A stretch of DNA of 64,000 nucleotides from a virus. The notes below the pieces were generated by a model that saw only the letters and a list, made by a program, of their open reading frames with translations, had not been told where the DNA came from and made no database searches. The DNA is taken from UHGV virus genome UHGV-0072281; one strand, given 5' to 3'. The translations under genes and the position numbers were made by a program. This document shows positions 6,690 through 51,126 of the stretch, one piece after another. Position 1 is the first letter of the stretch; each line of letters starts with the position of its first letter.

Positions 6690-6733
6690 CTTTTTACGAA
6701 TGTAGCTATTTTAATGATTAGGAGAATATAGAG

Positions 6734-8761: not shown

Positions 8762-8763
8762 AC

Positions 8764-9493: not shown

Positions 9494-9687
9494 AAATTTG
9501 GTTGCCGATTGTAGTTTTTATCCTTATCGCAGGGGCACTAGCGAACGCCGAGTACGAGAGTCGTGTTTTAGAAACGAAACGCATGTTGTATCTGAATTGT
9601 ATAAAGGATTATACACCAGGCACAGAGCTTCATGCACAGGCTGTAAAAAGCTGTGCATTGATGGCTGAATCACAGACTCGCTCCTAA
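9490..9687 (+). CDS. Small membrane or secreted protein
   Basis: 65-aa ORF; N-terminal hydrophobic segment WLPIVVFILIAGALANA; ATGA overlap. Confidence 0.5.
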   Translation: MKIWLPIVVFILIAGALANAEYESRVLETKRMLYLNCIKDYTPGTELHAQAVKSCALMAESQTRS

Positions 9688-33944: not shown

Positions 33945-34000
33945 ACAAAAAAAAACAATAAGTTTACCTACCTCCTTTACGGAGGTAGGTATTTTTTATT
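33945..34000. terminator. Bidirectional rho-independent terminator between convergent operons
   Basis: A9 run, hairpin cctacctcc-tttac-ggaggtagg, T-run. Confidence 0.75.
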
Positions 34001-34670
34001 CTAATCCCATTTCCAGTGCAAGTGCACGGATAGTGTCGTAGTCACGCTGTTCAGCTAAGAGGCGAAGCTCTTTTTTCTGTGCGGTCATTTGTCCATGCAA
34101 CTTCTGATCACGTTTTACGATCTCGGACAATAATTCCTTACACTCTTCTAATGTAAAGGGTTCTAAACGTGTATTGGCGGTATCCAACCAATATTCTGGC
34201 GCAGTTTCAGATTGGATGTATTGCCCTAACATTTGTCGGGAGATTGCATCAGCCTGAAAATGACGTTCATTTAGCTGAATTGGTTCGTAACGTTGTGCTT
34301 CGTAACGCTTCTCCAACGCCATCATGATCTTTTGAACATCTAAATAAATATATCGTGCTGTTGAACGAACGTTACTTCGAATCTCATCCAGATCTATCTC
34401 CAATTTATCTGAAATGAACTCTTTTGCTTTTTTCAAGGTGAAATTTGCTTCAATATCTGACATATTGTAACTACGCATTTGATCTAACGCGTCTTCATCG
34501 GACATGCCGTCGAGTAGTTTGTAATGAAGCAGTGTACAAAAACCCGTTCTGCCGCGATCTTCAGTACCTATATGGCCCAAAAAGTTTCCGTGGCGATCAA
34601 TTGGGGAAAGTCGGCTAAAAAATCTGGCGCGAATATCTTCGTTTATTAAGCTTTTGTCAAGAGCAGGCAT
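33996..34670 (-). CDS. Hypothetical protein, last gene of the radical SAM/peptide locus
   Basis: 224-aa ORF, overlaps upstream gene by 25 nt (translational coupling). Confidence 0.55.
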   Translation of the reverse strand: MPALDKSLINEDIRARFFSRLSPIDRHGNFLGHIGTEDRGRTGFCTLLHYKLLDGMSDEDALDQMRSYNMSDIEANFTLKKAKEFISDKLEIDLDEIRSNVRSTARYIYLDVQKIMMALEKRYEAQRYEPIQLNERHFQADAISRQMLGQYIQSETAPEYWLDTANTRLEPFTLEECKELLSEIVKRDQKLHGQMTAQKKELRLLAEQRDYDTIRALALEMGLE

Positions 34671-35218
34671 TCGTCTTCTCCTTTAATTAAACCCAGCTCG
34701 ATCAGAAGATCAAAATCGATTTTACGAAACTTACTATCAAAATTTGAGTCCCAGTCAATATGTAGTCCTTGACGTTCGTCTTCTGTAAACTCGGGATAAA
34801 CTAAACTATGAAAAGTTTCCCTTTCATCGTAAAAACCATCGATGGTGGACTCTGGGTTTCGTGTGACATAAATTGTTACACCGGGAAACGATAAGCCTAG
34901 GGCGGCTACAGATTCAACACTCGGCTCTTGCAAAGCGCGTCGCAAAAGAACGATTTTATGTTTAGGGAATTCCAGCACGCGCTGTTCAAAACCTGGGTTT
35001 CGTTTCTCGATTTCAGCCACAGAAAGATCGGTAAGTTCTGTACAATACATCGGAATAACAACGGTAACTCCGTGACGAATTAATAATCGCTTAACATCGT
35101 CATTGAAATCTTCGCCGTTAATCTGTACATAACAGCCAAACAGTTTCGTAGTTTCTAAAAACTTTTCCAGAAAACGGAATTTACGCTTCGTAATATTGTG
35201 GATCAGAATTGGCTTCAT
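34646..35218 (-). CDS. Hypothetical protein in radical SAM/peptide locus
   Basis: 190-aa ORF overlapping the SPASM rSAM gene end. Confidence 0.5.
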   Translation of the reverse strand: MKPILIHNITKRKFRFLEKFLETTKLFGCYVQINGEDFNDDVKRLLIRHGVTVVIPMYCTELTDLSVAEIEKRNPGFEQRVLEFPKHKIVLLRRALQEPSVESVAALGLSFPGVTIYVTRNPESTIDGFYDERETFHSLVYPEFTEDERQGLHIDWDSNFDSKFRKIDFDLLIELGLIKGEDECLLLTKA

Positions 35219-36503
35219 CTTTGGCTTCTCTCAATTGTTTTTCTTTCTGGGCGCGTTCACGTACACAGCGAGGACAGTAACACATGCTATTATCGTGAAA
35301 ATCCTTCACGGATGTTGTGCCCATTTTCTGCTTCCAATATTCCGCAACCATCAATTTTGCAGTTGTCCAACCACACTGACGACGTTCAGCGTGATATGCT
35401 TTACGGTCTTCTAACGTCCCTTCCCCATTCTCGTAGGAAGCTGCTGCACAGCTACCACAAGCGTGTTTCATTGGACAACCTAAGCACGTCTCAGGATAGT
35501 TGGTGTATTGCGTCTGAATCTCTTCCAGCAGTTTCCCACCGTCTAAACTAACGAATTCGCGACCGACTAACTCAAATACCGCAGAGCGTGACGTTACAGT
35601 CGACATGAAACGGTTACAACCGAAAATCTTCCTGTCAAACCCTAAACAAGTCATGTGCGTTAATGTCCCGCAGAACGGGCGCAAGCGTTCCGGGTTTAAA
35701 CGTACAGTATCGTTGTAAAGTAGCTGATCACGCCAGTTCGGTTCCCAGATAGTGTCGAAATCTAACCCTTCCGGGATGATATGCGAAAGGGTATTACGTG
35801 GGTTGGTGTGTAAACCCTTTTCAACCCAATAATCGACTACATCCATCATTTGTAGCGCTATCGACGTAGCCATACTCCGTGGCATAATGTCTTCGAAGGT
35901 TACGTTACCAGAAATGGTTCCACCTCCCGCCAAATCGATTAGGGATTTCATACCCGCCGCATAATGTGGGAGTGTCTCCAAAGTAAATGTCGCTTTAACC
36001 CCAAGCTCCGCGATACCTACTTCTTTTAGATAATTGTAACCACGTACAGCGGCCTCGTAGGAACCTTCGCGACTCGTTGTAAAAATACGGTACTTATCGT
36101 GCGACTCAGGTAACCCATCAATAGATACCCCGATAGAAAGTCTGTCCTTCCAACGTTCAATAATTTCCCTGTTCAACGGCCTATCTAATAATGTCCCATT
36201 AGTAGAGATACTAAACATAAACGGACGTTTATGTTCTTCACACAACTGCTCGGCTGTTTCGAAAGCAGTCATTAGAAGCTTAGGCTGCATAAACGGTTCA
36301 CCGCCGATAATGTCAATGATGACTTCTACGTTTGGTAAATCTTTATCGCGTTCAAAGCAGGCATGAAGAAAGTCTACAATATCCGCTGCTTTGTTATTGC
36401 GGGGATATTTACGCTCGTAACAATACTCACAGTCCAAATTACACGACAAGTTTGTAACAATCTGGTAAGTCAACTGTTTCGGGTAATTATTTTCTTGGTT
36501 CAT
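35181..36503 (-). CDS. Radical SAM enzyme with C-terminal SPASM-like Cys-rich domain (putative peptide-modifying maturase)
   Basis: N-terminal CNLDCEYC (C-x3-C-x2-C), IIGGEPF glycine-rich SAM motif, C-terminal Cys clusters incl. CLGCPMKHACGSC. Confidence 0.8.
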   Translation of the reverse strand: MNQENNYPKQLTYQIVTNLSCNLDCEYCYERKYPRNNKAADIVDFLHACFERDKDLPNVEVIIDIIGGEPFMQPKLLMTAFETAEQLCEEHKRPFMFSISTNGTLLDRPLNREIIERWKDRLSIGVSIDGLPESHDKYRIFTTSREGSYEAAVRGYNYLKEVGIAELGVKATFTLETLPHYAAGMKSLIDLAGGGTISGNVTFEDIMPRSMATSIALQMMDVVDYWVEKGLHTNPRNTLSHIIPEGLDFDTIWEPNWRDQLLYNDTVRLNPERLRPFCGTLTHMTCLGFDRKIFGCNRFMSTVTSRSAVFELVGREFVSLDGGKLLEEIQTQYTNYPETCLGCPMKHACGSCAAASYENGEGTLEDRKAYHAERRQCGWTTAKLMVAEYWKQKMGTTSVKDFHDNSMCYCPRCVRERAQKEKQLREAKDEANSDPQYYEA

Positions 36504-37410
36504 TTAATACTCCACTATTACGGTTGGCCATAACCACTCGTCGAATATACTCGTAGGCTTCTAACCCGATGGAACAAGCTAATTGGTTACATCCCGATTC
36601 TAATAATCTCGGGGCATTTTGCAACTGATATTCGGTTCCATCTGCTCTTAACCATAAACTATTGCTGCATACGTTACACCCACCATCAAAAACTTTGCTT
36701 ACGACATAGTCACACCTTTTCGAGTTGGAAACATTCAGTCTTTCTATATTTTCCTGAATTCTAAAATACCCGTAAATAAAGTTCATAACGTGATCGGGAG
36801 ATAACGGTTTTGGCATATTTGCGTCTAACAGCAACGTCATGGTACGATAACCGTAGTGATAGATCGCATTATGAAGCTCAATAATGTCTTCATGCCACCG
36901 TTTGTTACCCAACTGTTCTCGAGTTAAAACGGCCCATGTATGAACATTTTCAAGCTCATGCATTACTTCTAAAGCTTCGTAGCAATCATCGCTAATAAAA
37001 CGCTTAAAAGGGCGTTCAGACAACTCAAACCCGTCGATGCTAACATATACGTTATCAAATTGTTTTAACAACGGTAGATGCGTTTTACGCATCTTTAAGC
37101 CATTGGTGTATAACTGATGTTTGAGTTCTGGGCGAACTGCTTTTAACTCGTCAACAAACGCCTCAATTTTACGAGTGGCTAACAAAGGCTCACCACCCGT
37201 CCATTGAATCTCGGTAATTGTTGGGTTAGCTTCTAACGCCTCCATAATTCGGTCACGTTGAAACTCTCGAGAAGAATCTTCACGATTCATGTAATAGGCT
37301 CCGCCGCAGAAACTACAGTCCAGATTACATTTGGATGTAGTAATAACGGCTAATATAGTTGGATTATCAAATAGCTGATCTGATAATTTTGGTTCCGCAT
37401 TGGTCGCCAT
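36487..37410 (-). CDS. Radical SAM enzyme (paralogue B)
   Basis: VITTSKCNLDCSFCGG (C-x3-C-x2-C), WTGGEPLL; C-terminal Cys residues; paralogue of 39018-39929 with blocks of perfect nucleotide identity. Confidence 0.8.
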   Translation of the reverse strand: MATNAEPKLSDQLFDNPTILAVITTSKCNLDCSFCGGAYYMNREDSSREFQRDRIMEALEANPTITEIQWTGGEPLLATRKIEAFVDELKAVRPELKHQLYTNGLKMRKTHLPLLKQFDNVYVSIDGFELSERPFKRFISDDCYEALEVMHELENVHTWAVLTREQLGNKRWHEDIIELHNAIYHYGYRTMTLLLDANMPKPLSPDHVMNFIYGYFRIQENIERLNVSNSKRCDYVVSKVFDGGCNVCSNSLWLRADGTEYQLQNAPRLLESGCNQLACSIGLEAYEYIRRVVMANRNSGVLNEPRK

Positions 37411-37432: not shown

Positions 37433-38320
37433 TTAATTATAGTCGATAGCGAACAATGGATCTTCGTCGAAATTGACTCCAGGTTTTAAAACCTTAGTCG
37501 AATTATACGCCTCTAGCAACCGATTAAGATCGTTATAACGACTATTCATTCTTTTGAGGTCTTCTAAGGTCACAATACGATCAAGCATCGGCTTAACGGC
37601 CTCGGCTTCTTCATCAGTCAATTCAACCTTAGACAACAAAAAACTAACAAGTTTAGAAATATCAGCCTCGGTTACTGGACTTTGGCCAAATCGTATTTGA
37701 ACAAGATGTTGCATCCATGGTTTACGAATACGCTTCGTAATAACATGCTCATCAGTAATGGCTTTCCAAACAGAACGTTCACGAATCCATTCGAACTTAT
37801 AGCTATAGGCCATTAAATCAGCTAAATGTGCAATCCCGAGGTCCTGATAACCTTCAATGTTGGTGTATGGTTCACTGTCGGAATACTCTTCAACATCCTT
37901 ACCAACAAGAGTATAGTAATACGGAAAAGCCCCCATGTAATCTGGACTCCACCATCTCCGAACCATAGGCTTAGCGTCAAGCTCAGCAAACGGTGTAAAA
38001 AAAAGTTCTAAATCGCTACCAGCATTTAGAACTCCGTCACTGAAGAAGTATTTACCATCAACAATCATTCCATAAAGTTCATCATCTCCTGTAAAAACTA
38101 TCACACGTTCGACCGGCAGATCACGAATTGTAAAAGTATTTTCTACAGAGATATTATCACGGTTGACGATATCACGACCCCGTAATTTCGGCCATTCGCC
38201 AGGTAGCATGGTAATTAAACGAACGTCGTCACTTAAATGATAACGTACAGAATCTGGAGAAGAGATTTGCAAAGGATGGTTAAATGTAGTGTTATATGCT
38301 AAATGTAAATCGTTTTTCAT
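37433..38320 (-). CDS. Hypothetical protein between precursors and radical SAM gene
   Basis: 295-aa ORF; no recognisable motif. Confidence 0.55.
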   Translation of the reverse strand: MKNDLHLAYNTTFNHPLQISSPDSVRYHLSDDVRLITMLPGEWPKLRGRDIVNRDNISVENTFTIRDLPVERVIVFTGDDELYGMIVDGKYFFSDGVLNAGSDLELFFTPFAELDAKPMVRRWWSPDYMGAFPYYYTLVGKDVEEYSDSEPYTNIEGYQDLGIAHLADLMAYSYKFEWIRERSVWKAITDEHVITKRIRKPWMQHLVQIRFGQSPVTEADISKLVSFLLSKVELTDEEAEAVKPMLDRIVTLEDLKRMNSRYNDLNRLLEAYNSTKVLKPGVNFDEDPLFAIDYN

Positions 38321-38343: not shown

Positions 38344-38553
38344 CTACTTATTACCGCCAGCACCACGGCTACAACTACCGCTACAGGACCAGCTACACCC
38401 ACCGTTACAGTTATAGTGACTCAACGGTAAACCAGAAAGGTTATTAGTGGACGACACCGTACCCTGGTTTGCAATATAGTTGTTTGCTCCTGCTGTGGTA
38501 ATGTATCCTTCCGCCGTTACTAATCTGTCGCGTATGTTTTTAAGACTTATCAT
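38344..38553 (-). CDS. Cys-rich precursor-like peptide A (leader + short CxxxC core)
   Basis: 69 aa: leader MISLKNIRDRL...HYN then core CNGGCSWSCSGSCS; conserved leader and junction shared with B and C. Confidence 0.65.
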   Translation of the reverse strand: MISLKNIRDRLVTAEGYITTAGANNYIANQGTVSSTNNLSGLPLSHYNCNGGCSWSCSGSCSRGAGGNK

Positions 38554-38556
38554 TTC

Positions 38557-38955
38557 TCATCTTCCCGTACACGATTGCGAACAGCCACCATGACAGGTAC
38601 GACTACATGTACCTGTACATGTAGTCGTACATTGACCTATACATGTCCCCGTGCACCCACCAGAACATGAACTAGTACAACCTGAACATCCAGAACTACA
38701 ACCAGAAACACAGTTTGCTGAACATGAGGAACCACAACCTCCAGAAGCATTACCGGTACAACCACCAGAACAACTGGAGCACGTCCAGCTACAGCTACCA
38801 CCACAGTCGTAATGATTTTTAGGTTGCCCGCCAAATAGGTCGACATTATTCGTAGCCTTTCCACGAATATAGTTCTGTACTGCTCCAGTGTTTTTTAGCG
38901 CGGAAGAATCTATATTATCCAAGCGCGCTTTTAAAGAAGATAAACCAATCGCCAT
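38557..38955 (-). CDS. Cys-rich precursor-like peptide B (leader + long CxxxC-periodic core)
   Basis: 132 aa: ~50-aa leader then ~80-aa core with about 20 Cys at regular 4-residue spacing in G/S/T background, beginning DCGGSCSWTCS. Confidence 0.7.
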   Translation of the reverse strand: MAIGLSSLKARLDNIDSSALKNTGAVQNYIRGKATNNVDLFGGQPKNHYDCGGSCSWTCSSCSGGCTGNASGGCGSSCSANCVSGCSSGCSGCTSSCSGGCTGTCIGQCTTTCTGTCSRTCHGGCSQSCTGR

Positions 38956-39017
38956 TTTAACACCTACTGGTTCAGTGCCAGCTAAGGCACATTATAATTC
39001 ATTCTCTGTAAAAAATA

Positions 39018-39929
39018 TCACAATTTTGCCGGAATCCTATTCTTAGCCCCTACTACTCGTCGTATATAATCGTAAGCATCTAAGCCAACCTTTCTGGCTA
39101 AGTCACTACAGCCATGTTGCGTTACGATTTCAACGTTTTTTACTTGATTCTGGACACCGTCAGACTCGATACGTAAACAACGACTACATGTATTACAGGG
39201 TTCATCAAATAACGCGTTTAGCGTAAACGCGCACTCGCTTCGATTGGACGAATTCAGTCTTTCTATATTTTCCTGAATTCTAAAATACCCGTAAATAAAG
39301 TTCATAACGTGATCGGGAGATAACGGTTTTGGCATGTTTTTGTCCAAAACTAGCGACATCTCGCAAAAACCGTAATGGTAGATGTGATTATGTAGCGCAA
39401 TTATATCCTCATACCAGCGTTTATCACCGATACGTTCTCGTGTCAAGACTGCCCAGGTACGAATATTTTTCAATTCGTAAATTGTCTCCAACACCTCGTA
39501 TTGTTTTTCTTCGATAATCCGCATAAATGGACGCTCTGATTCTTTGAATCCGTCCATGCTAAAAAAGATGCTATCGAAACCCTTTAACAACGGTAGATGC
39601 GTTTTACGCATCTTTAAGCCATTGGTGTACAGGTAATGATCACAGCGAGGATACTTCTCCCTTATCTCTTCTATAAGGGCATCAATTTTACGCGAAGCGA
39701 GTAATGGTTCACCTCCCGACCACTGAATATTTGTGATGGTCGGGTTATTTTCCAGCGCCTCGATAATACTTTTCTTTTGTACTTCTGCGGTTGTATCCTC
39801 TCTATGCATGTAATAGGCTCCGCCGCAGAAACTACAGTCCAGATTACATTTGGATGTAGTAATAACATTTAACGTTCTTGGTTCAGAATACAATTGATCG
39901 GATACTGTCGGTGTGGTTAACTCTATCAT
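39018..39929 (-). CDS. Radical SAM enzyme (paralogue C)
   Basis: VITTSKCNLDCSFCGG, WSGGEPLL; immediately downstream of precursor C. Confidence 0.8.
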   Translation of the reverse strand: MIELTTPTVSDQLYSEPRTLNVITTSKCNLDCSFCGGAYYMHREDTTAEVQKKSIIEALENNPTITNIQWSGGEPLLASRKIDALIEEIREKYPRCDHYLYTNGLKMRKTHLPLLKGFDSIFFSMDGFKESERPFMRIIEEKQYEVLETIYELKNIRTWAVLTRERIGDKRWYEDIIALHNHIYHYGFCEMSLVLDKNMPKPLSPDHVMNFIYGYFRIQENIERLNSSNRSECAFTLNALFDEPCNTCSRCLRIESDGVQNQVKNVEIVTQHGCSDLARKVGLDAYDYIRRVVGAKNRIPAKL

Positions 39930-39953
39930 CAGTAATAGTACCTATCTGTTAAA

Positions 39954-40346
39954 TTAAGTCGGTCCTGAACAAGACGCACATGCGCCACTACATCCCGAGC
40001 TACAACGCCCGGAGCATCTACCACTGCATGTAGCGCTGCAACCAGTGCACCCACCAGAACACGTAGCGCTGCAACCAGTGCATTGATTACCGCAGGCGGA
40101 TGAACAGCTTCCAACACACACTGAGGTGCACGTACCAGAACAACTTGTACAACCATGCGTACAACCGTTCGAGCACGTCCAGCTACAGCTACCACCACAG
40201 TCTAATCGACCCGGTGTCCAGCCTGAAAAAGAATCTGCGGCATTGTGAGCTTTTGATGCAACCTGTGGATCGACGCGGGGTCCTGTCGCCATTTGATTCT
40301 CTACGTTGGTGATTCGATCGCGAACGTTTTTAACACTAATCGCCAT
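39954..40346 (-). CDS. Cys-rich precursor-like peptide C (leader + long CxxxC-periodic core)
   Basis: 130 aa: leader MAISVKNVRDRI...GRLD then core CGGSCSWTCS... with about 21 Cys; AAGGA RBS. Confidence 0.7.
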   Translation of the reverse strand: MAISVKNVRDRITNVENQMATGPRVDPQVASKAHNAADSFSGWTPGRLDCGGSCSWTCSNGCTHGCTSCSGTCTSVCVGSCSSACGNQCTGCSATCSGGCTGCSATCSGRCSGRCSSGCSGACASCSGPT

Positions 40347-40358: not shown

Positions 40359-40400
40359 AAATAAAAAAAGAGGAGGACTACGCCCATAAGCATAGTTCCT
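40359..40400 (-). terminator. Rho-independent terminator (minus strand) after gene 40413-41618
   Basis: On minus strand: hairpin aggaggaact...agtcctcct followed by TTTTTTTATTTT. Confidence 0.6.
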
Positions 40401-40412: not shown

Positions 40413-41618
40413 TTATTTCGTACCCGCTTCCGCCTGTACGTCATCACGAGACGTCAAGTTAGCGTTAACGTGTACTGGGGCCTGAACCACACCACCGTAT
40501 TTCTTGTGGAGATAACCGGTATGTGGGTTATCTGCCGCAATGTGGTTTTGTAGGTTCTGGTTCGCCTGACTGATTGCGTTCGTGTTGTTAGCAACTTGCT
40601 TTTTGAGCGCATCCAGGTTCTGTTGTAACTGATCGATTTTCTGATCGGTTTCTTGACCCTGTTGCTCTAACGCGTCAACACGCTGAATAACCTGATTCAG
40701 TTTCGTGTTCAAATCGTTAATGCTCTTTTGCAGCTGTAACACTAACGAGTTCAGGTTCGCTAACGCTAAAGCCATTTTCTGGTAGTTTTGAGCAACCACG
40801 TTAAGTTGGTCGTTCCACGCTTCCAGAGAGTTGACAACAGCGTCAATACGCTTACCTAAAGCTTCATCTGCTTTCTTCAGTGCATTGATTTCCGTAATCG
40901 TTGCGTCGATAGCAGACTGGACGTCACGAATAAGCGCACGGATTTCAGTTTCTGTTAACCCGTTAACCTGATGAATATCAAGATGGTGAACGTTACCGGT
41001 TGCGTTAATGTGTGCATTTAAAGCGTCTAAGAAGTCATTTTTCAGGCTTTCTAAAATCGCTTTAATGTTCTCTAACTGTACCGCGTCACCAGAACTGATC
41101 GCATCTTTAATACCCGCCAATACGGTAATGATATATTCAAAACCGTAAATATCACCTACGTCTTTATACGTCGGTGCAGAAGGGAATGTATCTGGTACGT
41201 TACGCAGGTCTTTAAACGCAACCGTACGGTTATCGAGGTTTAATTCAGCAATCGCCTGTTCGATAGCCACGATGTTCGCAGACTGTGGGCCACCAACGAC
41301 CTGCGCAGATACCGTAATATCTGTTGGAATCGCTGTGTTAGTGACCACCACCGCCATAACAATCTCGCGGTTTTTAGTCAGCTTTTCATAAGTCGGGTGT
41401 GCAAAAATCAACTCATAATCGGTACCACGTTCGTAGGTTGCATCCGGTCGGTTAGCAACGCGTAAACGGAACGTGTCCGCAAAGAACGGGCCGTCAGGAA
41501 AAGCAAAAGCACGGTTTACTTTACCTGTACCTAACGTAATCTGACGCTCCACAGCGTTAGACGTTAGCGAGCCCGTTAAATCTAAAGGATATTGATAAAC
41601 AATGGAGGCCATGGCCAC
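40413..41618 (-). CDS. Fibre-like structural protein with N-terminal shared anchor module and coiled coil
   Basis: 401 aa; N-terminal block (FPDGPFFADTFRLRV...GTDYEL) shared with the three giant proteins upstream; long heptad-like segment; C-terminal NPH motif. Confidence 0.6.
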   Translation of the reverse strand: MAMASIVYQYPLDLTGSLTSNAVERQITLGTGKVNRAFAFPDGPFFADTFRLRVANRPDATYERGTDYELIFAHPTYEKLTKNREIVMAVVVTNTAIPTDITVSAQVVGGPQSANIVAIEQAIAELNLDNRTVAFKDLRNVPDTFPSAPTYKDVGDIYGFEYIITVLAGIKDAISSGDAVQLENIKAILESLKNDFLDALNAHINATGNVHHLDIHQVNGLTETEIRALIRDVQSAIDATITEINALKKADEALGKRIDAVVNSLEAWNDQLNVVAQNYQKMALALANLNSLVLQLQKSINDLNTKLNQVIQRVDALEQQGQETDQKIDQLQQNLDALKKQVANNTNAISQANQNLQNHIAADNPHTGYLHKKYGGVVQAPVHVNANLTSRDDVQAEAGTK

Positions 41619-41652: not shown

Positions 41653-44600
41653 TTAAGATGTAAACATAAGATTGAACTGGAGTTTGTCGATATCGCGAGT
41701 TTCTGCTGGATTCACGCCGTCGTACGCGGTCGCTACGTAAACCGTTAGCGTACCGTCAGCGTACGAGGATATTACCGGTGGGTTAGTTCCGGTCTGACCA
41801 TCTCGCACAATGAGTGCAGGCTCGCTGGGAAGATTATCAAACTGCCCTTTAACCGCTTTGTATACCAAACCGGACTGTGCAGATAACTCCGTGTCTGTGT
41901 ACACACAGAACGGTGTATCGATGTCAGCTTGTTTGATAGTGGTACCGGATTCGACATCAACCAACTGTACTGCTCCAAACTTCGTGCGATAACTTTCATA
42001 TTCGTTCTTCGGAATAACAAAAGTAACGTGAACACGAACTTCTTCAGCGGGCTTAAAGCCAGTATGTTCTTTTTCCAAATACTGGTTGGCTGATAGTGTC
42101 ACTTTTTGTTCGGCCATCGAACCACCTGCCTGATTTATTCCGTACCGGGCTTCAACAATACCGGTTGGTGCAGCAAGTCGCAATTTCAGAGTCCGATTCG
42201 CCGTTCCTGGATTACCTGGCACTTGAACGCGCAAACTCAATGCTAAGTAAGCATACGTTCCGGTAGTCGGTTTCGTATACGCACCTATCCATTTCATGTT
42301 CGCAGACGCTGCCTGCGTGTTCTCAGAAGCAATGGCTGTCGTAATGTTAGCAGCTACCGCTTTCTGCCAGAATTGGTCGGCGCAGTTCTCATACGCTACT
42401 CTGGCCACGCTCTTATAACCCGAATACGTTTCCTGAATTGGTAACTTAGGACGCGTCGTGATGCCAGACAATGAACCCCATTTTTGACCGTCAACATACC
42501 CTTCGCCCTTCGACGCAGCCGCCGTAGGTGCTTTAACGGGCTTGTTAACCAGGGTTAATAGAGGACCCGTCTTTCTGTCAAACGCTGCTGCTACATCGTG
42601 TTGGTCGATAATTGCTGCGTGGTCTTCCAGCTCTTTCACACGACCCAAGCGTTTTACTTTGTCGATACTGATATCAGTAATACGGCTGGAATCGGTGGTT
42701 ACTGTCCCGACGAACAGTCTCGTTGAAGTATCGGCTAACTGCTCCAAACCGATGCGGTATTGTGCGGTAGAATCCGACACCTCAGCGTGCACGTAGAACG
42801 TCTGGTTAGCGTGATTGGACGGGAACTCGCTGCTTAAATCCACAGACCACGTTGGGAGTGTGTAGCTGCTGCTACCGAAGTCTAATTTGACTTCTTCTGT
42901 CAAATACAGAATCCAACCTTCCGCTGTCTCCACACCAGCAATAATAACCGCCTGACCACCGGTTGAGAACGTCGTGTCGTTAACGAACTCTGCGGCTGTA
43001 TACGCGTTACCTGAACAGAAAACACGGTCAGCTTTAGAGAAAATCAACGCCATCTTGTCCCAATTACCGGCACCCATATAGCATCCAGATTCTGGGTTAT
43101 GCGCAGGAGCCATCTGACGTAACTGCGACTTACCAGGAACGCGAGACCAACCTGAACCTGGGTCGTAGGTATACTTCGCGGCGTAACCTAGTGCGTTTAA
43201 GTCCCCGATATTTCGGATAGTTAACGTATAAGGTAGCCAGATACCGAAGTTAGTTCCATCCGCAGAAGCGAAAATAGGCTGTCCGACGCGACGGGTCTTA
43301 TTACCAGCCTCCTCTCTTAACGACTGATAACTTAAACCGTAGTCTTTATCCAGGAACCAATCCACCAACTTAAAGTTAGCGGAGTTGAACCGTAAGTAAC
43401 CATTCTCTTTAGATGGACTCACCATGAAGTAATAGATGTCAAGAATTCGACGACCGTTACTTAAGGTTTTCATGCACGAAACTTGCAACAAGTCAAATTC
43501 GCACACGGTGTTGATACCCAACATCCAAAGAGCAAACAATGCATTACCGGTTTGATGGGCAGCACTAATACGTTCGTTCGCGTATCCGTTCGCTTGGCCA
43601 GAAGGTGCACCGTCAACGATCATCCGAATCATTTTCTGTCGATCGGCTTCTTCTAGCGTTAAGCGTTCGGAAGACAACGCGAAGTTACCGTAGATGTTAC
43701 GATACGGGAACGTTTCTGCTTTGGTCAAATACCAACCGTTTAACTGTCCGTGACGCTCCTCAGGAGTCATGCACGCAGCCATACAGCTAAGCTGCTCATA
43801 TAGCGTTGGATCGACTTCACGACGGTTGTTGTTCGGACCGTATCCGCTATAACCCGGAACATCGTAAGGTTTGTTCGGATCAACTTCTACTTCGATGGTG
43901 TAACGGTTACGTGGGTTAGACATCCACACTTTGTTCGAACCACCAATCCCAACAGGATGGGAAAGACCAATGGTATAAATAGAACCACGACCTTTATCCC
44001 AGGTAAACGTTCCTTCGCCTGAGGTATTGTTTGGGTTATCGTAACGCAGATAATCGAAAAATTCTTTGCCTTGTGTTCCTTTAATAGAAACGTTAGGCAT
44101 TTGGTCCGCGTCGTTAATCTGCCAGCAGGAAAGCATCATTCCTGTTCCATTAGGCTTAGCGTACGTTGCAAAACAACGATTGTTTGCTTGACCACCGCCC
44201 CACTTACGGCTGGTTTCTACAGTTGAACCATCCGCGAAAGAGAGTGTAGTAGCATCAGCCTTGATGGGAAAGCGTTCGCGGCCTTCTAACGTAACCTTGC
44301 CCGTCGACGTATCGATTGTAAAACTTGTTGCCCACTGACGAAAGTTAATTTGTGAGCTGTCAGCCGCTGCAAACCACACAGTAGGCATATGGTTCACACG
44401 AATCACGCCGTCGCGCACTGCACAAGCATGGTTACATTCTGGACCGTGAACAAAGTTGCAACCAATTGTCCATTTAGCCCGTGCTTCCGGCGTCAAATAC
44501 GTAAAGAACTGACCCGTTTGTGACTCTTCGGTTTTCTGGCCAATGCGTAGGCAGAGGTTATCTCCGAATTGTCCCATCTCCCCGTTTAGTGTTACGCGTT

Positions 44601-46836
44601 CAAACTCCAGCGTGGTGCTAGTAGACAAATCGTCCTTACGTAGACGCCAAGCTGCTACTGCGTAAGCAGAGTTATTTACCGTAGAGCGGAGAAGATAAAC
44701 GTAATCCTCAACCAACACAACATCATCGGCTTCTGGCCACGGATTCCAGGTTTGTTCCACAGTACCGCTGGGGTTGCCGTTACGGTACACGGGCATCGTA
44801 ACGCGACATACCACCGTGTGTTTAGTGTGATCCATCGAACCATTAAACAACACCAAATAACGGTTATTATCAGAACCCAGACAAATAATCGCTTCCTGAC
44901 CACCGATCAATATAGCTTTCAGGGTCACTCCAGGATATTTACTCATCCCGGCAGGGTGATATTTCACTGAGGTCTGCTGCGGATTTACAAACGCGTTTGA
45001 CGTGTTAATGTCAGCATAGCCGTAATAAATGGCTTCTGTACCCGGTACGCCGTTAGAACCGTTACGGAGCGAATAAACCTTACCCTGCTGATACCCAACA
45101 ACCCCTTTTTGATAAGACTGGTTTTTGGTATAACCCGAATAGTTACCTAGCGCTGGGATAGGTAAGAAGTTCTTGTTACCGAACTTCGCACCACCTACCG
45201 TCCACGCCGGTAAGATGGTATTCAGTTTATCAGAGACTTTCTTAATCTCTTTTGCGAACAGCCACCCTTGACGCGACGTGACAGCTTTATCGTTAGTAGT
45301 GTCAATCGCATCCCAGAGCTGCAAGATACCGTCAACCGATGCACTACCAATTGGAATGTTATCCAAGTCAGCAGTGGTGTGTGTATGCGTCTTCAAACTC
45401 TTGTTTTTCAACACGTTCGTTAACGCTTTCGTCACCGGCTTAGCACTTGGCGTGGTGTTATCCATCTTATCGGTACCGAAATCGGTTTTCGTTAAGGTTA
45501 ACACCATACTGTCGCCTACCTTAACAAACCCTTTACCGTTAACGGTATAGTCATCGTCAACGTACAGGTCCAAGCGGTCTTTTAATTCGGTTACGGCTTT
45601 CTGGGAGATAGCAGTACCTAACGCCGCAGACGTGGAGATATTCGTAATCGAGAACAACCCATAAACTGATTCGGTCGCTGTGGGAATATTCGCGTTTAAC
45701 GTAACCGGGTTAGTCTGTTTTGCGGTACCGTACGGTTTTACAGTGTCTGACGCTTTGAAATACGCGTTTGCTTCGAGCAACGTTACTGACGTCAGGTACA
45801 TGTTCACCATTTCTGGCGTAACCAGATACACGGAGTTATAAACCGGCGCTAATACATCCTGTTCTGACCCCGAGTGAACCCAAAGCGTATTCAGACCCGC
45901 ACTGAATTCAACCGCTAAACCTGATTCGTTGTTGTCCTGGTCTGCTTTAATCACCAACGGTTGTGGCGAGGTAATTAACCACTTATCACCGCGAATACTG
46001 ATGATGTGGCCACCTGACGTTTTAAACGTTAATTCAATACCGTTAGTAGTGCCCCATCGACCGTAAACAGTACCGAGGGCTTCACCCATTAACTGGTCAA
46101 CGTCTGATTGCTCAATACCCGCTGAACCCATCAGCGTAGCCAACTCGTCAATCGTCAACCCAAACGCTTTTGTAGCGTCAACAGCGCGGCCTAATACCGG
46201 GAGAGCAGCAATGTCGTCAGTGGTATAATGATGAGCGTTAGGATTCCGGTGGTGTTGGTATAACTCTTCGTCGAAAACCTTTTTACCGTTCTCGTAAATC
46301 AGGTTAGTAACTTCACTAAACGCAGCATCTAACTCTGTAGAACGCTTAATGATTTTCTTACGAATGTCTTCTAACGCCTTAACAACCTCATCTCTCAGAA
46401 TAGCTTCTTCTAAGTTAGCAGGCGGGTCGATTGGTTGAATAACCGGCGCATACGCCATTAGTTCAGACCAGTCCACGTTACGTGGGTCTTTCAGGTCAGT
46501 ACGAACTAAGAACTTCCCGATTTCAGATTGCGGTACACGATATTGACGTGCTACCCCTAAAATCTCATATTCGATTTCTGTTGCAGTAAGCAACATAAAC
46601 CCGCCGTAAATCTGATCTTGTTCAGCTTCTGCGAGTTCTTTAAAGTAATAGCCTAAATAGTAGTCCAACCCCTCAATCAGAGTACGACGTCCGTTAGGCG
46701 CGGTATCGTCGGCTACTGTGAGTTTTAATCCGATACGATAAAAAGGTCCTTCAGGTGGAATGACCACGTTAAATCGGTTAGGGTACGTTGCTGTGCTTAG
46801 CGTACCGTTAAACTGCGCCGCGTCTTCTCTCGGCAT
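41653..46836 (-). CDS. Giant tail fibre / tail spike-like structural protein
   Basis: 1727 aa; N-terminal block PPEGPFYRIGLKL...GLDYYL homologous to neighbours; AGGAG RBS. Confidence 0.65.
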   Translation of the reverse strand: MPREDAAQFNGTLSTATYPNRFNVVIPPEGPFYRIGLKLTVADDTAPNGRRTLIEGLDYYLGYYFKELAEAEQDQIYGGFMLLTATEIEYEILGVARQYRVPQSEIGKFLVRTDLKDPRNVDWSELMAYAPVIQPIDPPANLEEAILRDEVVKALEDIRKKIIKRSTELDAAFSEVTNLIYENGKKVFDEELYQHHRNPNAHHYTTDDIAALPVLGRAVDATKAFGLTIDELATLMGSAGIEQSDVDQLMGEALGTVYGRWGTTNGIELTFKTSGGHIISIRGDKWLITSPQPLVIKADQDNNESGLAVEFSAGLNTLWVHSGSEQDVLAPVYNSVYLVTPEMVNMYLTSVTLLEANAYFKASDTVKPYGTAKQTNPVTLNANIPTATESVYGLFSITNISTSAALGTAISQKAVTELKDRLDLYVDDDYTVNGKGFVKVGDSMVLTLTKTDFGTDKMDNTTPSAKPVTKALTNVLKNKSLKTHTHTTADLDNIPIGSASVDGILQLWDAIDTTNDKAVTSRQGWLFAKEIKKVSDKLNTILPAWTVGGAKFGNKNFLPIPALGNYSGYTKNQSYQKGVVGYQQGKVYSLRNGSNGVPGTEAIYYGYADINTSNAFVNPQQTSVKYHPAGMSKYPGVTLKAILIGGQEAIICLGSDNNRYLVLFNGSMDHTKHTVVCRVTMPVYRNGNPSGTVEQTWNPWPEADDVVLVEDYVYLLRSTVNNSAYAVAAWRLRKDDLSTSTTLEFERVTLNGEMGQFGDNLCLRIGQKTEESQTGQFFTYLTPEARAKWTIGCNFVHGPECNHACAVRDGVIRVNHMPTVWFAAADSSQINFRQWATSFTIDTSTGKVTLEGRERFPIKADATTLSFADGSTVETSRKWGGGQANNRCFATYAKPNGTGMMLSCWQINDADQMPNVSIKGTQGKEFFDYLRYDNPNNTSGEGTFTWDKGRGSIYTIGLSHPVGIGGSNKVWMSNPRNRYTIEVEVDPNKPYDVPGYSGYGPNNNRREVDPTLYEQLSCMAACMTPEERHGQLNGWYLTKAETFPYRNIYGNFALSSERLTLEEADRQKMIRMIVDGAPSGQANGYANERISAAHQTGNALFALWMLGINTVCEFDLLQVSCMKTLSNGRRILDIYYFMVSPSKENGYLRFNSANFKLVDWFLDKDYGLSYQSLREEAGNKTRRVGQPIFASADGTNFGIWLPYTLTIRNIGDLNALGYAAKYTYDPGSGWSRVPGKSQLRQMAPAHNPESGCYMGAGNWDKMALIFSKADRVFCSGNAYTAAEFVNDTTFSTGGQAVIIAGVETAEGWILYLTEEVKLDFGSSSYTLPTWSVDLSSEFPSNHANQTFYVHAEVSDSTAQYRIGLEQLADTSTRLFVGTVTTDSSRITDISIDKVKRLGRVKELEDHAAIIDQHDVAAAFDRKTGPLLTLVNKPVKAPTAAASKGEGYVDGQKWGSLSGITTRPKLPIQETYSGYKSVARVAYENCADQFWQKAVAANITTAIASENTQAASANMKWIGAYTKPTTGTYAYLALSLRVQVPGNPGTANRTLKLRLAAPTGIVEARYGINQAGGSMAEQKVTLSANQYLEKEHTGFKPAEEVRVHVTFVIPKNEYESYRTKFGAVQLVDVESGTTIKQADIDTPFCVYTDTELSAQSGLVYKAVKGQFDNLPSEPALIVRDGQTGTNPPVISSYADGTLTVYVATAYDGVNPAETRDIDKLQFNLMFTS

Positions 46837-46931
46837 CGTAAAGACTCCTACTTTTTAAATAAAATGGATACCCCTCCCCATTACAGGGAGGGGTTACCTA
46901 CGGACACACAACTGCCCGCAGGCAGCCTGTC

Positions 46932-49900
46932 CTAAGTACGATCCCCTAACTGCTTCCCGTTAAGTTCTCGTTTCAGTACAGAAAGTATCCATTTCCACGC
47001 TTTACTCGTGATATGGTACGGATTGCGTTTCTCCATTAAGAACTGCTTTTCACCGCTACGCAGTTCAAAGCTCTGCGCATTAAGGTAGTCCTGACGATAG
47101 ATTTTCTCATCAAAAACTTCCAATGAACAGGTAAAGTTAAGTTCGTACCCTTCAGGATTATTACCCGGCGGGTCTAAGACAATATAGATGTCCTGGCCTA
47201 CACGTAAATCCGTTGGAGTGATGGTAATCGCTTTACCCACATCGGCGTTAGTCGACAGAGCAAACTCCGCACTGTCCGTAGACGCTAAGAATGGGTCTTT
47301 CCCTGCGTCGCCAATAATCACTTTACCTGGCCAGTTACTTTTTATCGTTCCCGTCACTTTTGCAATTCGATATTGCTGTTTATCAACACCTTGTGCAAAA
47401 CGGAGAATGAGTTTGTGACGATAACGACTTGCAGCAACCTTAGTCGTACTCCACACATTGTTCCAGGAAGTGTGCAGTTCATTGTTCTTCGCCATCAACG
47501 CACCACGAGACAGTTTACGGTCAAAGAACTGCGCAGGTAACTGCCCATCGTGAGAAACCGCAACACTTCCCTGACCAGTTGGCAAGGCAATGCTCTCCGT
47601 GGCACGGTATTTTTGACTAATCTCATAAGTCGCAGGGTCAATCACAGACTGACTATAATCAGCGTCTTTGTTATCAGCCAAATACCCAACGGATGAATCC
47701 AGATACGACTCAAACAACGAACGTAAGTAATGATACTTATCAATGTCGATATTGTTCGTAACCGGATCAATCAGTGCGTGGCTAATCGTTACTCGGCATT
47801 TCGCGCTCAGTTCTTTAAACGATAATCCTATTCCGTCACCGGTGAAATAATCCACTAAGTCGAACGGGAATTGAATTTCCAACTGACGTTGTTTAACTGT
47901 CGTCGTCCCAAACTGCGAGAACGACAACGCTAAACGTAACACACGCGTACTTACGTTATAACGGTAACGAATCATCCCACGAGGTGCATGGTTTGCAGAG
48001 ATTTTATCTCGGGCGGCGCCCCAGCCAATCAAATCGAGAATCGCAGCATTCGTTTCTTCACCGTTGAACAACACATCCTTAAACGTTGCATTCACCGCTG
48101 TTTCCCCAGACTCTTCCATTACCAACGGAATGTCAGTAACGGCAGAATCTGAACGGGAACCAATCCCCAGCTTACACGCTTTGGCAGTTAGGTCAATGCG
48201 CAGATAGCGACGTTTAACGCTACTCCCTTGCGTTGACGAGCATAGAACCAAATCCGGCGCAGCAGCAAGGGCTTGCGTCCCACCAACATCGTCAACATCG
48301 AATGCAAACGAGCCTTCGAAAGTCGGTGCGTTGTTTTCTTTCGGGTTAAACGGTGTAAACCAACAATACGGCGTAGCACCTTCAGGTATCACAACGTATT
48401 GAAGACTGGATTTCACGTTTTGGTTGTGTGCGTAAGTATAAAGACCGCGACTGACAAGATGGAAAACATCACCTGTACCGGCTGTTAACGCTTTCCTAAA
48501 GATACACGCTCTCGGTTCGGCAATAGCACGGTTTAATAACGGCAAACGTGGGTTATCCGTTAGCGTCCAGTCCACAGAACTGAGTCCGTGCGCTTTACGA
48601 GTGTCGATGTGTTCACTAACCTCGGCACTTTTCCCGAAATCGAACGTGGTTTCGAACCCAACTGTTTTATTCGCGTAATTCTCACCAGCAACAATATCAA
48701 CGTAACCGATATAACCACGTTCAGGATCAACTGCGATGCTCTGAATAGGTTCAGCACGCGAATATAGAGAGCCTGTGAGCATGTTAACGTACAGATAGTG
48801 ACGAATCCCTACGTGGGTTGTAACAAACTCCTGGAGAAGCTCTACGCGCGTTTCAGGGCCACTGAAGTAAACAGGGTAATCACCGTCGTAAACTTCAAAT
48901 TGCACAGCTGCTGATTTTGCAGTGTCACTGCATTCTGCTTTAACAGCGATTGTGTAATTTTCAACATCTAACGACGTTGTGTAGTTCATTAACAACGGAG
49001 ATTCACCGGTAGCGGCCACAACACCATTTACATAAATGGTTATCCTTCCACCGCCAGCGGCGTAAACAAACAGCCTATTCTGATAAGCTTTGACCCGTAT
49101 TTTAGCCAACACTGATACAACGGACTGTTCACCCATCTGTGTAGCGCTTTTACCTACCGGAACTGACTGAAACCCCATTGTTGGAGGATCAACAATTCCA
49201 TCCCAACTAATCCCAGTACCTCTACTAACTTTCCCCGTAGGCCAAGTCAGCTCAAGCTGGTTGTTCGGTGAGAACCAGTTAAACATCGGGGTGGTTTGTA
49301 AGTCAATCGCACCAGTAACGACACCGTCGGCCTTTCCTCCATTCAGCAAATAGAAGTATTTCAAATCCTGAACGGAGATTGTCGTACCCTGGCTATTAAA
49401 ACGCCAGTCTGCGCCTTTTACAGCAGCGAAATCAGTTACTGTTCCTTCTTTCGCGTTTGCTATCGCAGCGGCCACCACATCTAAACGTGCTGAAAGCTCT
49501 TTTAAGATGTTCGGTACCACTGCTCGGTTTTCAACTAAACCGTTCTGGTTAGTTGCGTAACGGCCAATACCGTAAATAGACTGCGAGGCTTTATAAATGC
49601 CTAACTCTGACCAGCCGTGATGGTGGCCGACATCTGCTAAACCGCTAACCGATGTATTCAATGCGGTAGACAACGGTTTGTCAAGGTCTGCGGTGTTGTC
49701 CGCTTGCCCTAATCCCAGATCGGCTTTCGTGATTGTCCTGGAACCGTCGTCCATCGCTTTACCGTTAATCATGGTCGTTTTAGTCACGTACCCTGATAAG
49801 TCGGTTGAATACGGCGTTAATGACGCAGGGGTTGCAGCAACCCCAACCGTTTCTGTGCCTTTACCGGTTTTAAGTTTAACGACACCTTTTTCAGTGGTTG

Positions 49901-51116
49901 ACGCTTTCGTCGGGTCGATAGCCCCCACGATAGGATCGGCTCGAGAACCTTTACCAGTGAAACTGATCCCATTACGGCCTTCGATATACACTTTGGAGTC
50001 ATCAGGGTCGCTACCGCCACCAGAACCCGCATCAGGGTCTTGTTGGTATTCCATAAGTGCGGTGGTGGTCAGTAACGGGTTACCGTTCAGGGTGAGTTTG
50101 TTCATCCCTAAAACATCGCCCGTTGACTCGATGCGTAACATGTTTTTACCCGCACGCCAGTTAATGTAACGTCCCGCGCTAGTGCCTTCCAAATGACCTA
50201 CCGCCAATACCACAGAACCGTTGGATTTTAACGTAAAGCCGTCATTCGCAAAAATGATTTCTGACTCACCGTTTTTCGAACGGAATTGTGCGCGGTTTCC
50301 TGACACCGTACAGTTAAACACACCCCGTACTTCCGAAGAAATCCAGTGGGAGATATACGTGTCAATAACCGACTGTGGTAAACGAAACGCTTTCAGCTCA
50401 TCCGTCAACGCTTTCAACTTTAACCCGTACGCCATAAAGGTGTCAGGGGTTTTCAGGTTAACGGGATGTGCATTAATTTGTGCACTTGTGGTTTCGTGTG
50501 GGTTCGTCGCGGCAATATGTGCTGGGTAGTTAAACGCTTCGATTTCTTTACCCAACGCGGTCACTAACGCTTTAACTTCAGCTAATTTATCTTTAATTAG
50601 CTGGTTAGCGTCATCGGTTTTCAGCTCGATATCGTGAATCGCCGACGCTAAGTATTTTTTGTTCAGCAAATCCGCCCAGGACGTTGCCGCAGGCGTAGCT
50701 GGGTATAGCGACGGTCTACCGTCTAACAACAACCAGTCTGCACTGACTGGGTTATTCAAATATTTCACCAACTCGTCGAGCATCTCAACGAACGGGTCGT
50801 AGAACGTACCGCCGAGCATTTGTCCTTCAAAGGTTACGATGCCTTTGATGGATGGGTTGATAAGGTGTACCCCACAATACACGTTGGCTGCTACCGAGTC
50901 ATCCAGTTCCGTCAGCTGATATTGTAGTTCGTAGTCCACCCCACGACTCAGTGGGGTGGTTGAACCCGGTTGTCTGACGACTAAGTCTTCAAAGAACGGG
51001 CGATGGTCTAAAATCACCACCCGGTCGTTGTTGTTTTCTGACCCGATGATACGCTCCTCTAAGAAGTGATTCTCGGTTTTCGTCCCCCGAGGATCGTAAG
51101 GATACGCTTTCATCAA
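46932..51116 (-). CDS. Giant tail fibre / tail spike-like structural protein
   Basis: 1394 aa; N-terminal block DHRPFFEDLVVRQ...GVDYEL homologous to neighbours. Confidence 0.65.
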   Translation of the reverse strand: MMKAYPYDPRGTKTENHFLEERIIGSENNNDRVVILDHRPFFEDLVVRQPGSTTPLSRGVDYELQYQLTELDDSVAANVYCGVHLINPSIKGIVTFEGQMLGGTFYDPFVEMLDELVKYLNNPVSADWLLLDGRPSLYPATPAATSWADLLNKKYLASAIHDIELKTDDANQLIKDKLAEVKALVTALGKEIEAFNYPAHIAATNPHETTSAQINAHPVNLKTPDTFMAYGLKLKALTDELKAFRLPQSVIDTYISHWISSEVRGVFNCTVSGNRAQFRSKNGESEIIFANDGFTLKSNGSVVLAVGHLEGTSAGRYINWRAGKNMLRIESTGDVLGMNKLTLNGNPLLTTTALMEYQQDPDAGSGGGSDPDDSKVYIEGRNGISFTGKGSRADPIVGAIDPTKASTTEKGVVKLKTGKGTETVGVAATPASLTPYSTDLSGYVTKTTMINGKAMDDGSRTITKADLGLGQADNTADLDKPLSTALNTSVSGLADVGHHHGWSELGIYKASQSIYGIGRYATNQNGLVENRAVVPNILKELSARLDVVAAAIANAKEGTVTDFAAVKGADWRFNSQGTTISVQDLKYFYLLNGGKADGVVTGAIDLQTTPMFNWFSPNNQLELTWPTGKVSRGTGISWDGIVDPPTMGFQSVPVGKSATQMGEQSVVSVLAKIRVKAYQNRLFVYAAGGGRITIYVNGVVAATGESPLLMNYTTSLDVENYTIAVKAECSDTAKSAAVQFEVYDGDYPVYFSGPETRVELLQEFVTTHVGIRHYLYVNMLTGSLYSRAEPIQSIAVDPERGYIGYVDIVAGENYANKTVGFETTFDFGKSAEVSEHIDTRKAHGLSSVDWTLTDNPRLPLLNRAIAEPRACIFRKALTAGTGDVFHLVSRGLYTYAHNQNVKSSLQYVVIPEGATPYCWFTPFNPKENNAPTFEGSFAFDVDDVGGTQALAAAPDLVLCSSTQGSSVKRRYLRIDLTAKACKLGIGSRSDSAVTDIPLVMEESGETAVNATFKDVLFNGEETNAAILDLIGWGAARDKISANHAPRGMIRYRYNVSTRVLRLALSFSQFGTTTVKQRQLEIQFPFDLVDYFTGDGIGLSFKELSAKCRVTISHALIDPVTNNIDIDKYHYLRSLFESYLDSSVGYLADNKDADYSQSVIDPATYEISQKYRATESIALPTGQGSVAVSHDGQLPAQFFDRKLSRGALMAKNNELHTSWNNVWSTTKVAASRYRHKLILRFAQGVDKQQYRIAKVTGTIKSNWPGKVIIGDAGKDPFLASTDSAEFALSTNADVGKAITITPTDLRVGQDIYIVLDPPGNNPEGYELNFTCSLEVFDEKIYRQDYLNAQSFELRSGEKQFLMEKRNPYHITSKAWKWILSVLKRELNGKQLGDRT

Positions 51117-51126
51117 AAAATTCTCC

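Follow-up and report, generated by a model that had tools for sequence, protein, structure and literature searches.

A cysteine-ladder and radical-SAM cassette behind the tail-fibre genes of an SPN3US-like jumbo phage

In this study, we analysed a 64,000-nucleotide (nt) stretch of the UHGV virus genome UHGV-0072281 (the window), which is that of an SPN3US-like jumbo phage, and in particular three Cys-rich genes, A, B, and C, located on its minus strand between positions 38344 and 40346. We consider it probable that they encode small proteins of the tail-fibre module whose Cys ladders are cross-linked in the cytoplasm by radical S-adenosylmethionine (rSAM) enzymes, and that the products stay on the fibres as a braced distal element. 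The Cys ladder is very probably the target of the rSAM/SPASM enzyme encoded in the same cassette, an assignment that we infer and that is well supported by the co-occurrence of the two genes. Judged from gene neighbourhoods, Cys-ladder/rSAM cassettes are widespread behind phage tail-fibre genes.

Three conserved Cys-ladder genes

Gene A (38344–38553, minus strand) encodes 69 amino acids (aa) with 4 Cys residues and is a minimal paralogue consisting of the N-terminal region, a junction, and one more Cx3C unit. Gene B (38557–38955, minus strand) encodes 132 aa with 20 Cys, divided into an N-terminal region (residues 1–50, 38806–38955) and a core (residues 51–132, 38560–38805). Gene C (39954–40346, minus strand) encodes 130 aa with 21 Cys, with an N-terminal region at residues 1–49 (40200–40346) and a Cys-ladder core at residues 50–130 (39957–40199). 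A 303-aa rSAM gene (39018–39929) is housed in the same span, between C and B. An earlier interpretation made from the nucleotide sequence alone (the sequence-only reading) had described three open reading frames (ORFs) with a shared leader, a conserved leader–core junction, and a strictly periodic CxxxC core, and its Cys counts were borne out. The N-termini of A, B, and C can be aligned over the full length of their N-terminal regions (~50 residues). The proposed N-terminal motif is present in A (MISLKNIRDRL) and C (MAISVKNVRDRI), but B has a looser version (MAIGLSSLKARL). At the junction, C-x-G-x-C-S-W-x-C-S is the sole invariant block in the three proteins; the preceding residues are HY(N/D) in A and B but RLD in C.

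In the cores, Cys occupies mostly every fourth position in a Gly/Ser/Thr background, but the phase slips, so that "strictly periodic" was a slight overstatement. The gaps between successive Cys residues in B comprise 16 Cx3C, two Cx2C, and one of seven residues that reads Cx3-A-x3C, in which Ala stands in place of one Cys. In C, the gaps are 16 Cx3C and four Cx2C, and CC and CxC spacings are found in neither core. When each of the two cores was shuffled 100,000 times with its composition preserved, no shuffle reached 16 Cx3C pairs, the maximum being 10. Asp and Glu are absent from the core sequences of A, B, and C, from the eight commonest core residues, and from every position of the Cx3 unit. 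No further ORF with at least four Cys at 2–3-residue spacing was found on either strand of the rest of the window.

The junction motif DCGGSCSWT is encoded by the same 26 nt in B (38783–38808, minus strand) and C (40177–40202, minus strand). This identity, also noted in the sequence-only reading, is exact, and none is expected by chance. Over 39 nt of the junction, B and C match at 34 positions in the window phage versus 22–29 in 11 relatives. A conserved nucleic-acid element was ruled out, as the synonymous codons differ in the 11 related phages. Being peculiar to the window phage, the 26-nt identity is more readily seen as coincidence or local gene conversion than as a conserved DNA element.

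A, B, and C are real genes under purifying selection. All 12 phages of our comparison set, which represent five genera (Seoulvirus, Machinavirus, Erskinevirus, Derbicusvirus, and Wellingtonvirus), show the gene order C, B, A, and the lengths of the three proteins are nearly constant across them. The number of Cys residues is 21 in all C proteins, 20–23 in B, and 4 in A, with 2–3 in the A proteins of the two most distant genera. The A orthologues of Derbicusvirus and Wellingtonvirus retain only the CNGSCSW junction, which agrees with the suggestion that A is a truncated or minimal substrate, the minimal version being the fitting description. In a tblastn search, the N-terminal 56 residues of C were 70–80% identical in 60 phage records, and a contig in IMG/VR (UViG_3300045988_078609) carries a 440-aa rSAM gene identical to that of the window and seems to derive from the same phage. 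Each gene is preceded by a Shine-Dalgarno site (AAGGA, 8 nt upstream, for C). In the frames given here, synonymous sites are saturated (proportion of synonymous differences, pS, ~0.6–1.0) versus proportions of nonsynonymous differences (pN) of ~0.03–0.4, in the N-terminal part and the core alike; the exception is the short core of A compared with the most distant phage (L011). For C, pS is 0.73–0.94 versus a pN of 0.15–0.40, and for A, pN is 0.03–0.2 versus a pS of 0.6–1.1 against the closer relatives L001, L007, L003, and L002. All three proteins match phrog_6085, a PHROG family of unknown function (C, E = 2e-40; B, E = 1e-38; A, E = 2e-24), and none has a match in a local copy of Pfam.

The GenBank/RefSeq records of SPN3US-like phages (L001–L008 and L011–L013) mostly omit B and C or call ORFs in the wrong frame or on the opposite strand in their place. 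In the SPN3US record (NC_027402, L001), the misannotated region is at 9001–10030 of the locus, and gp100/SPN3US_0166 is a wrong-frame call; several "hypothetical proteins" of Erwinia phages are further wrong-frame or opposite-strand calls. On NC_027402, the three ORFs occupy complement 144220–143828 (C), 143817–143413 (B), and 143397–143191 (A). Alternative-frame and opposite-strand ORFs over the cores were ruled out, because the substitution patterns and Shine-Dalgarno sites support the Cys-rich frame alone. A collection of 5.8 billion proteins contains only three matches to C in total, a scarcity that is probably due to gene callers missing these ORFs.

The 440-aa enzyme and its Cys-rich partners

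The proposed Cys-ladder maturase is an rSAM/SPASM enzyme of 440 aa (35181–36503, minus strand) with 83% identity to SPN3US gp163 and a match to Pfam Radical_SAM; it is encoded on the same strand as A, B, and C and no more than 5 kb away from them. In NCBIfam, it matches TIGR04115 best, a model titled "radical SAM peptide maturase, CXXX-repeat target family" (120.2 bits, E = 1e-34, profile positions 3–344 of 359). This score is below the curated cut-off of 350 bits, and by its profile match the enzyme is a relative, not a member, of TIGR04115; elsewhere, the enzyme of gut-phage locus L053 scores 470 bits and is a true member, and that of locus L034 scores 308 bits. PapB is the second-best family (112.9 bits, cut-off 340), and TIGR03906 (QhpD) is also among the NCBIfam matches. 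The cluster-binding motif CxxxCxxC (C21, C25, and C28) and the residues C278, C296, C340, C343, C349, C352, and C377, which make up the full SPASM set, are invariant in 28 homologues. The enzyme begins at the catalytic core. Its alignments to maturases of ribosomally made, post-translationally modified peptides (RiPPs) that bear a RiPP recognition element (RRE) start at about profile position 84. A search against RiPP precursor models, which the sequence-only reading had proposed as a check, gave sub-threshold scores: B matches TIGR04117 as well as TIGR04114, the latter at 17.0 bits against a cut-off of 20, A scores 11.8 bits against TIGR04114, and C has no match.

NCBIfam and Pfam models already describe CXXX-repeat targets paired with an rSAM/SPASM enzyme (TIGR04115 for the maturase; TIGR04114, TIGR04117, and PF27846 for the targets). 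Relative to this system, the window cassette is a divergent, sub-threshold variant that has additional components and whose targets are three short proteins. The two have in common the SPASM enzyme without an N-terminal RRE extension and targets whose Gly/Ser/Thr background is interrupted by Cys at each fourth position, and the true member in L053 also sits after a tail-fibre gene. The window cassette goes beyond the modelled system in containing p295 (a protein of 295 aa), an rSAM-like protein without a cluster, and one or two small rSAM enzymes, and its targets are three short paralogues with the C-x-G-x-C-S-W junction and a different N-terminus. The maturases of the ranthipeptide freyrasin (PapB) and of SCIFF peptides (CteB and Tte1186) are likewise SPASM rSAM enzymes acting on substrates with repeated Cx3 units, and their chemistry is Cys thioether formation (PMC9413430, PMC12373016). 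The window differs from these in the score of its enzyme, in cores devoid of Asp and Glu, in the absence of an N-terminal RRE domain, in substrates of 130 aa with 20 Cys, and in encoding no leader protease or exporter.

We examined 68 IMG/VR loci outside the SPN3US group, in which the enzyme is 24–37% identical to that of the window. In 65 of them, an ORF with at least four Cys spaced 2–3 residues apart lies within 6 kb of the enzyme gene, and runs of eight or more Cys occur in 62, always on the strand of the enzyme. These partner ORFs are mostly 200–570 aa long with a long Cx3C/Cx2C region. A tail-fibre gene detectable by BLASTP stands alongside in 45 or more of the 68 loci. The gene order in L034 and L053 is baseplate wedge, tail protein, and tail fibre, followed by the Cx3C gene and the rSAM gene. 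Furthermore, six homologues were drawn from general genome and metagenome collections, and each proved to lie, together with a Cys-ladder ORF, in a tail module of a phage or prophage. The proposal that the cores are substrates of modifying enzymes is thus strengthened by TIGR04115 being the best family of the enzyme and by homologues that are almost always encoded beside Cx3C proteins.

These data also bear on the case that the sequence-only reading had set against itself, namely that the Cys-rich regions are repeats of a structural fibre protein with ordinary disulfides only. The ladder proteins would then be unmodified; after lysis they would form disulfides or bind metal, and the targets of the rSAM enzymes would lie elsewhere, such as another tail protein or a small molecule. 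The fibre context is real, and Cys-/Thr-rich repeats can form disulfide-braced β-helices, of which beetle antifreeze proteins are an example. However, the constant presence of the rSAM/SPASM enzyme argues against "disulfides only": the enzyme and the Cx3C ORF form a near-obligate pair in very divergent phages, and the nearest families of the enzyme all modify Cys-containing peptides. We therefore regard unmodified ladder proteins as very unlikely.

Fate of the ladder proteins

The ladder is not always encoded as a separate small protein. In loci L015, L016, L029, and L099, it makes up the C-terminal domain of tail proteins of 258–568 aa that are either bona fide fibres or fibre-like. A bona fide tail fibre from a P2-like prophage of Campylobacter pinnipediorum (L016; E = 1e-55 to tail PHROGs) has the C-terminus CNGCSGSCSGSCSSGC. 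The Deferribacter prophage protein of L015 (302 aa) contains KATNADQLGGQAGSYYRCSDCSWTCSSSCTGSC, the L099 protein contains ASKLAGQTSGYYRCSGCSWTCTTNC, and the 568-aa protein of the jumbo contig L029 contains VTLGGQPPDFYTCGGSCSWSCLSTC. The fused proteins of L015, L029, and L099 share with A, B, and C the junction GGQxxxxY-C-x(2-3)-C-S-W. Residues 33–67 of B are 56% identical to the L015 protein, residues 41–132 of B are 41% identical to the 568-aa L029 protein, and the phrog_6085 profile matches the L015 protein from profile position 17 on. Because of the B alignments to L015 and L029, the second half of the "leader" and the junction of A, B, and C are assigned, by sequence comparison, as homologous to an internal piece of longer fibre-like proteins. 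The Deferribacter cassette also contains a p295 homologue and a small rSAM enzyme.

In the window, the gene directly upstream of C encodes a 401-aa coiled-coil tail protein (40413–41618, minus strand), which is a homologue of SPN3US gp167 and matches phrog_2163 (E = 3e-103). The same PHROG matches the tail-fibre gene ahead of the rSAM/Cx3C pair in L053. SPN3US gp167–170 are tail proteins, and gp167 is abundant, with 880 peptide-spectrum matches in virions and approximately none in tailless particles (PMC10052503, supplement). In addition, gp168 is considered a baseplate or fibre protein (PMC5105663).

The layout of A, B, and C resembles the leader, junction, and core of a RiPP precursor, and the nearest enzyme families are RiPP maturases. 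As a classical RiPP system, the leaders would guide the rSAM enzymes, a host or unlinked protease would cleave, and the cores would be freed at lysis as an antimicrobial, signal, or anti-defence peptide. The first ~17 residues, which are missing from the fused fibre versions, could suit such a role. Likewise, a fecal phage contig (L014, MT836223) encodes a 62-aa peptide (1899–2087) with a helical N-terminus, or leader, followed by a Cx3C tail, CKGTCRGTCGGSCNGR, directly after an rSAM gene; this rSAM enzyme is 25% identical to that of the window, and the peptide resembles a conventional short RiPP precursor more. However, no cassette protein belongs to a protease (leader peptidases included) or transporter (exporter) family in Pfam, NCBIfam, and PHROG scans, and no RRE domain was detected in the cassette by family scans or in AlphaFold2 (AF2) models of p295 and a 190-aa cassette protein (p190): these models did not match a winged-helix RRE, that of p295 matching nothing and that of p190 being rSAM-like. 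The N-terminal regions are about as conserved as the cores. Moreover, the position of the genes is fixed within tail-fibre modules of unrelated phages, the ladder forms the C-terminal domain of the 258–568-aa fibre proteins described above, and cores of ~80 residues with 20 Cys far exceed known sactipeptides and ranthipeptides. A classical RiPP is accordingly quite improbable. The view that the N-terminus is a removable leader is also disfavoured by the homology of its second half and the junction to an internal fibre segment and by the location of the genes directly behind an abundant tail protein.

It is also conceivable that the ladder proteins are modified but act only in assembly, as a fibre scaffold, a chaperone, or a metal or Fe-S carrier, and do not form part of the completed particle. 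The gene that follows a fibre gene frequently encodes an assembly chaperone, and a Cys-rich sequence could bind metals. In SPN3US, gp161, gp162, and gp163, the homologues of the DUF4376 protein, p190, and the 440-aa enzyme, respectively, are non-virion proteins, and gp164 and gp165 (homologues of a small rSAM enzyme and p295) are absent from the searchable virion tables (PMC10052503, supplement). The fused versions, however, place the ladder on the C-terminus of the fibre, where absence from the particle would need cleavage, and the strict number and spacing of Cys over five genera suggest a defined structure. We consider a role confined to assembly unlikely.

We propose instead that A, B, and C are constituents of the fibre. 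Each protein would start with an N-terminal amphipathic helix, continue with a fibre-type segment, K-A-T-N-N-x-x-L-x-G-x-x-x-x-x-Y, and end with the C-x-G-x-C-S-W junction and the ladder. The ladder would be modified in the reducing cytoplasm by the 440-aa rSAM/SPASM enzyme of the cassette, probably with assistance from the small rSAM enzyme(s), p295, and the cluster-less, rSAM-like p190. Cys-derived thioether cross-links, such as those made by the PapB, SCIFF, and QhpD maturases, would be the likeliest chemistry. The product would remain a protein, probably built into or onto the distal tail fibre, where it would form a rod or tip that is stapled covalently and is insensitive to redox conditions. 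Other phages have the ladder domain fused to the C-terminus of the fibre.

Several points weigh against this proposal. The scores of the rSAM enzyme are far under every curated family cut-off, and the cross-link chemistry at A, B, and C is argued by analogy with the nearest enzyme families. The type of link is a guess, because the cores lack the Asp and Glu acceptors used by PapB and QhpD. Nothing in the fused fibre proteins corresponds to the first ~17 N-terminal residues, which could be a leader for enzyme recognition. A comparison of the N-terminus of A, B, and C with the ~110-aa N-domain of the Cx3C proteins of gut phages revealed no homology (hhalign probability 0.3%). Finally, the SPN3US proteomics database was built on an annotation without the A, B, and C ORFs, and we infer their presence in virions.

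Two known systems resemble parts of the proposed pathway. QhpC, the γ subunit of quinohemoprotein amine dehydrogenase, is a small protein in which the rSAM/SPASM enzyme QhpD installs several Cys thioethers and which is kept as a subunit of a larger assembly instead of being released as a peptide, and it is the best functional analogy for A, B, and C. It differs in belonging to another protein family, in having Asp/Glu acceptors, and in being a periplasmic, enzymatic component and not part of a virion. The gp38 adhesin of T2- and S16-type phages, with its Gly-rich motifs, is also a small protein encoded just after a fibre gene, and such tips analogously combine an N-terminal attachment part with a low-complexity distal domain rich in small residues. 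In contrast to A, B, and C, gp38 has no Cys ladder and no need for an rSAM enzyme, and no sequence relationship is expected.

With some reservation, the proposal may extend beyond the window: tail fibres may bear RiPP-like cross-links installed by rSAM enzymes, and the CXXX-repeat system could be a fibre-maturation system of myo-, sipho-, and podo-type and jumbo phages that staples a ladder at the fibre tip. In a full-text search of the literature, no publication was found in which tail fibres are linked to rSAM/SPASM enzymes and Cx3C proteins, nor any experimental work on the CXXX-repeat family. To our knowledge, an enzyme-made thioether (or related) cross-link in a structural protein of a virion would be the first of its kind. 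If the proposal is true, phages can brace their fibre tips covalently without disulfides, a feature that would be a hitherto unrecognized determinant of how stable fibres are or how they bind receptors, and rSAM cross-linking would matter for the engineering of receptor-binding proteins. An orphan family of rSAM "RiPP" enzymes would gain a biological home in phage tail fibres, and the SPN3US-like jumbo phages, which are therapy candidates and a genetic model, would gain three conserved annotated genes. SPN3US offers amber-mutant genetics and tailless mutants, and mass spectra of its virions have been deposited, so that the idea can be tested directly.

The surrounding cassette and divergent loci

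All protein genes of the cassette, except for a second small rSAM gene, are conserved in the 12 phages. This second gene is the one between C and B (enzyme b, 303 aa; 39018–39929, minus strand), a divergent extra paralogue that is 63% identical to enzyme a and 55% identical to SPN3US gp164. It is peculiar to the window phage; 62 related phage records each have one matching place. Enzyme a (307 aa; 36487–37410, minus strand) is the homologue of gp164, with 63% identity. In the small rSAM enzymes, the CxxxCxxC motif and three C-terminal Cys residues (C245, C248, and C274) are invariant in 16 homologues, including those from prophages. Whether the conserved Trp of the junction tracks the presence of a small rSAM enzyme was considered, and the pattern is inconsistent: L016, L097, L098, and L100 have a small rSAM enzyme and no Trp.

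The p295 protein (37433–38320, minus strand) is a homologue of SPN3US gp165 and belongs to phrog_8030. Its AF2 model is confident (pLDDT 84, pTM 0.79) and has no structural neighbours in the PDB and BFVD except its own orthologue; the predicted structure may represent a new fold. The C-terminal half recurs in the Deferribacter prophage cassette (hhalign 97.4%; phrog_8030). The p190 protein (34646–35218, minus strand), a homologue of gp162 in phrog_7988, is predicted to form an rSAM-like partial barrel without the cluster cysteines. It has no sequence similarity to the small rSAM enzymes, and its likeness to them is confined to the predicted fold. The last gene of the co-linear block encodes the DUF4376 protein (224 aa; 33996–34670, minus strand; Pfam PF14301), a homologue of gp161. 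It is conserved in all relatives and likewise follows an rSAM pair in L100.

Hairpins flank the block. A terminator-like hairpin with a T-run (40362–40396, minus strand) parts the 401-aa tail-protein gene from C, and T-rich tracts precede C in related phages as well. After the DUF4376 gene, the block is closed by a strong hairpin (33965–33991, both strands scored) with an 11-bp stem, six G-C pairs, and a T-run on the plus strand only. This arrangement suggests that the Cys-ladder and enzyme genes may be expressed at a lower level, by read-through.

Upstream of the 401-aa gene are three very large paralogous tail/fibre genes (41653–55452, minus strand; 1727, 1394, and 1441 aa), homologues of SPN3US gp168–170. 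The number of giant fibre paralogues equals that of the Cys-ladder paralogues, and a one-to-one pairing is pure conjecture. It is equally speculative that the three paralogues, which are kept at 1:1:1, form a heterotrimer or provide one cap for each of the giant fibre proteins gp168–170.

Some divergent loci have other arrangements. Two metagenome-assembled genomes contain Cys-ladder ORFs of 76–79 aa that start with MSRFF(T/S)RPNQQG and were missed by the gene finder (L097, 4021–4251; L098, 4017–4256). In both, a T7-type tail-fibre gene precedes the ladder ORF; its stop and the ORF start overlap in L097, and the ORF begins slightly beyond the stop in L098, an arrangement that suggests translational coupling or a fusion. 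A 246-kb viral contig (L087, IMGVR_UViG_3300042922_000542) has, within 952–10260, ORFs at 952, 3393, and 4514 with the rSAM motif CNL(N/R)CKYC near their N-termini and a 603-aa ORF (5449–7260) that contains the query match; the two adjoining giant Cys-ladder proteins are of 551 aa with 52 Cys and of 421 aa with 78 Cys. On a phage contig carrying a diversity-generating retroelement (L010), the protein encoded at 2578–3609, beside a Cx3C protein, has a SPASM domain without CxxxCxxC and is either a pseudo-rSAM protein or an assembly error (contig coverage, 2.8x).

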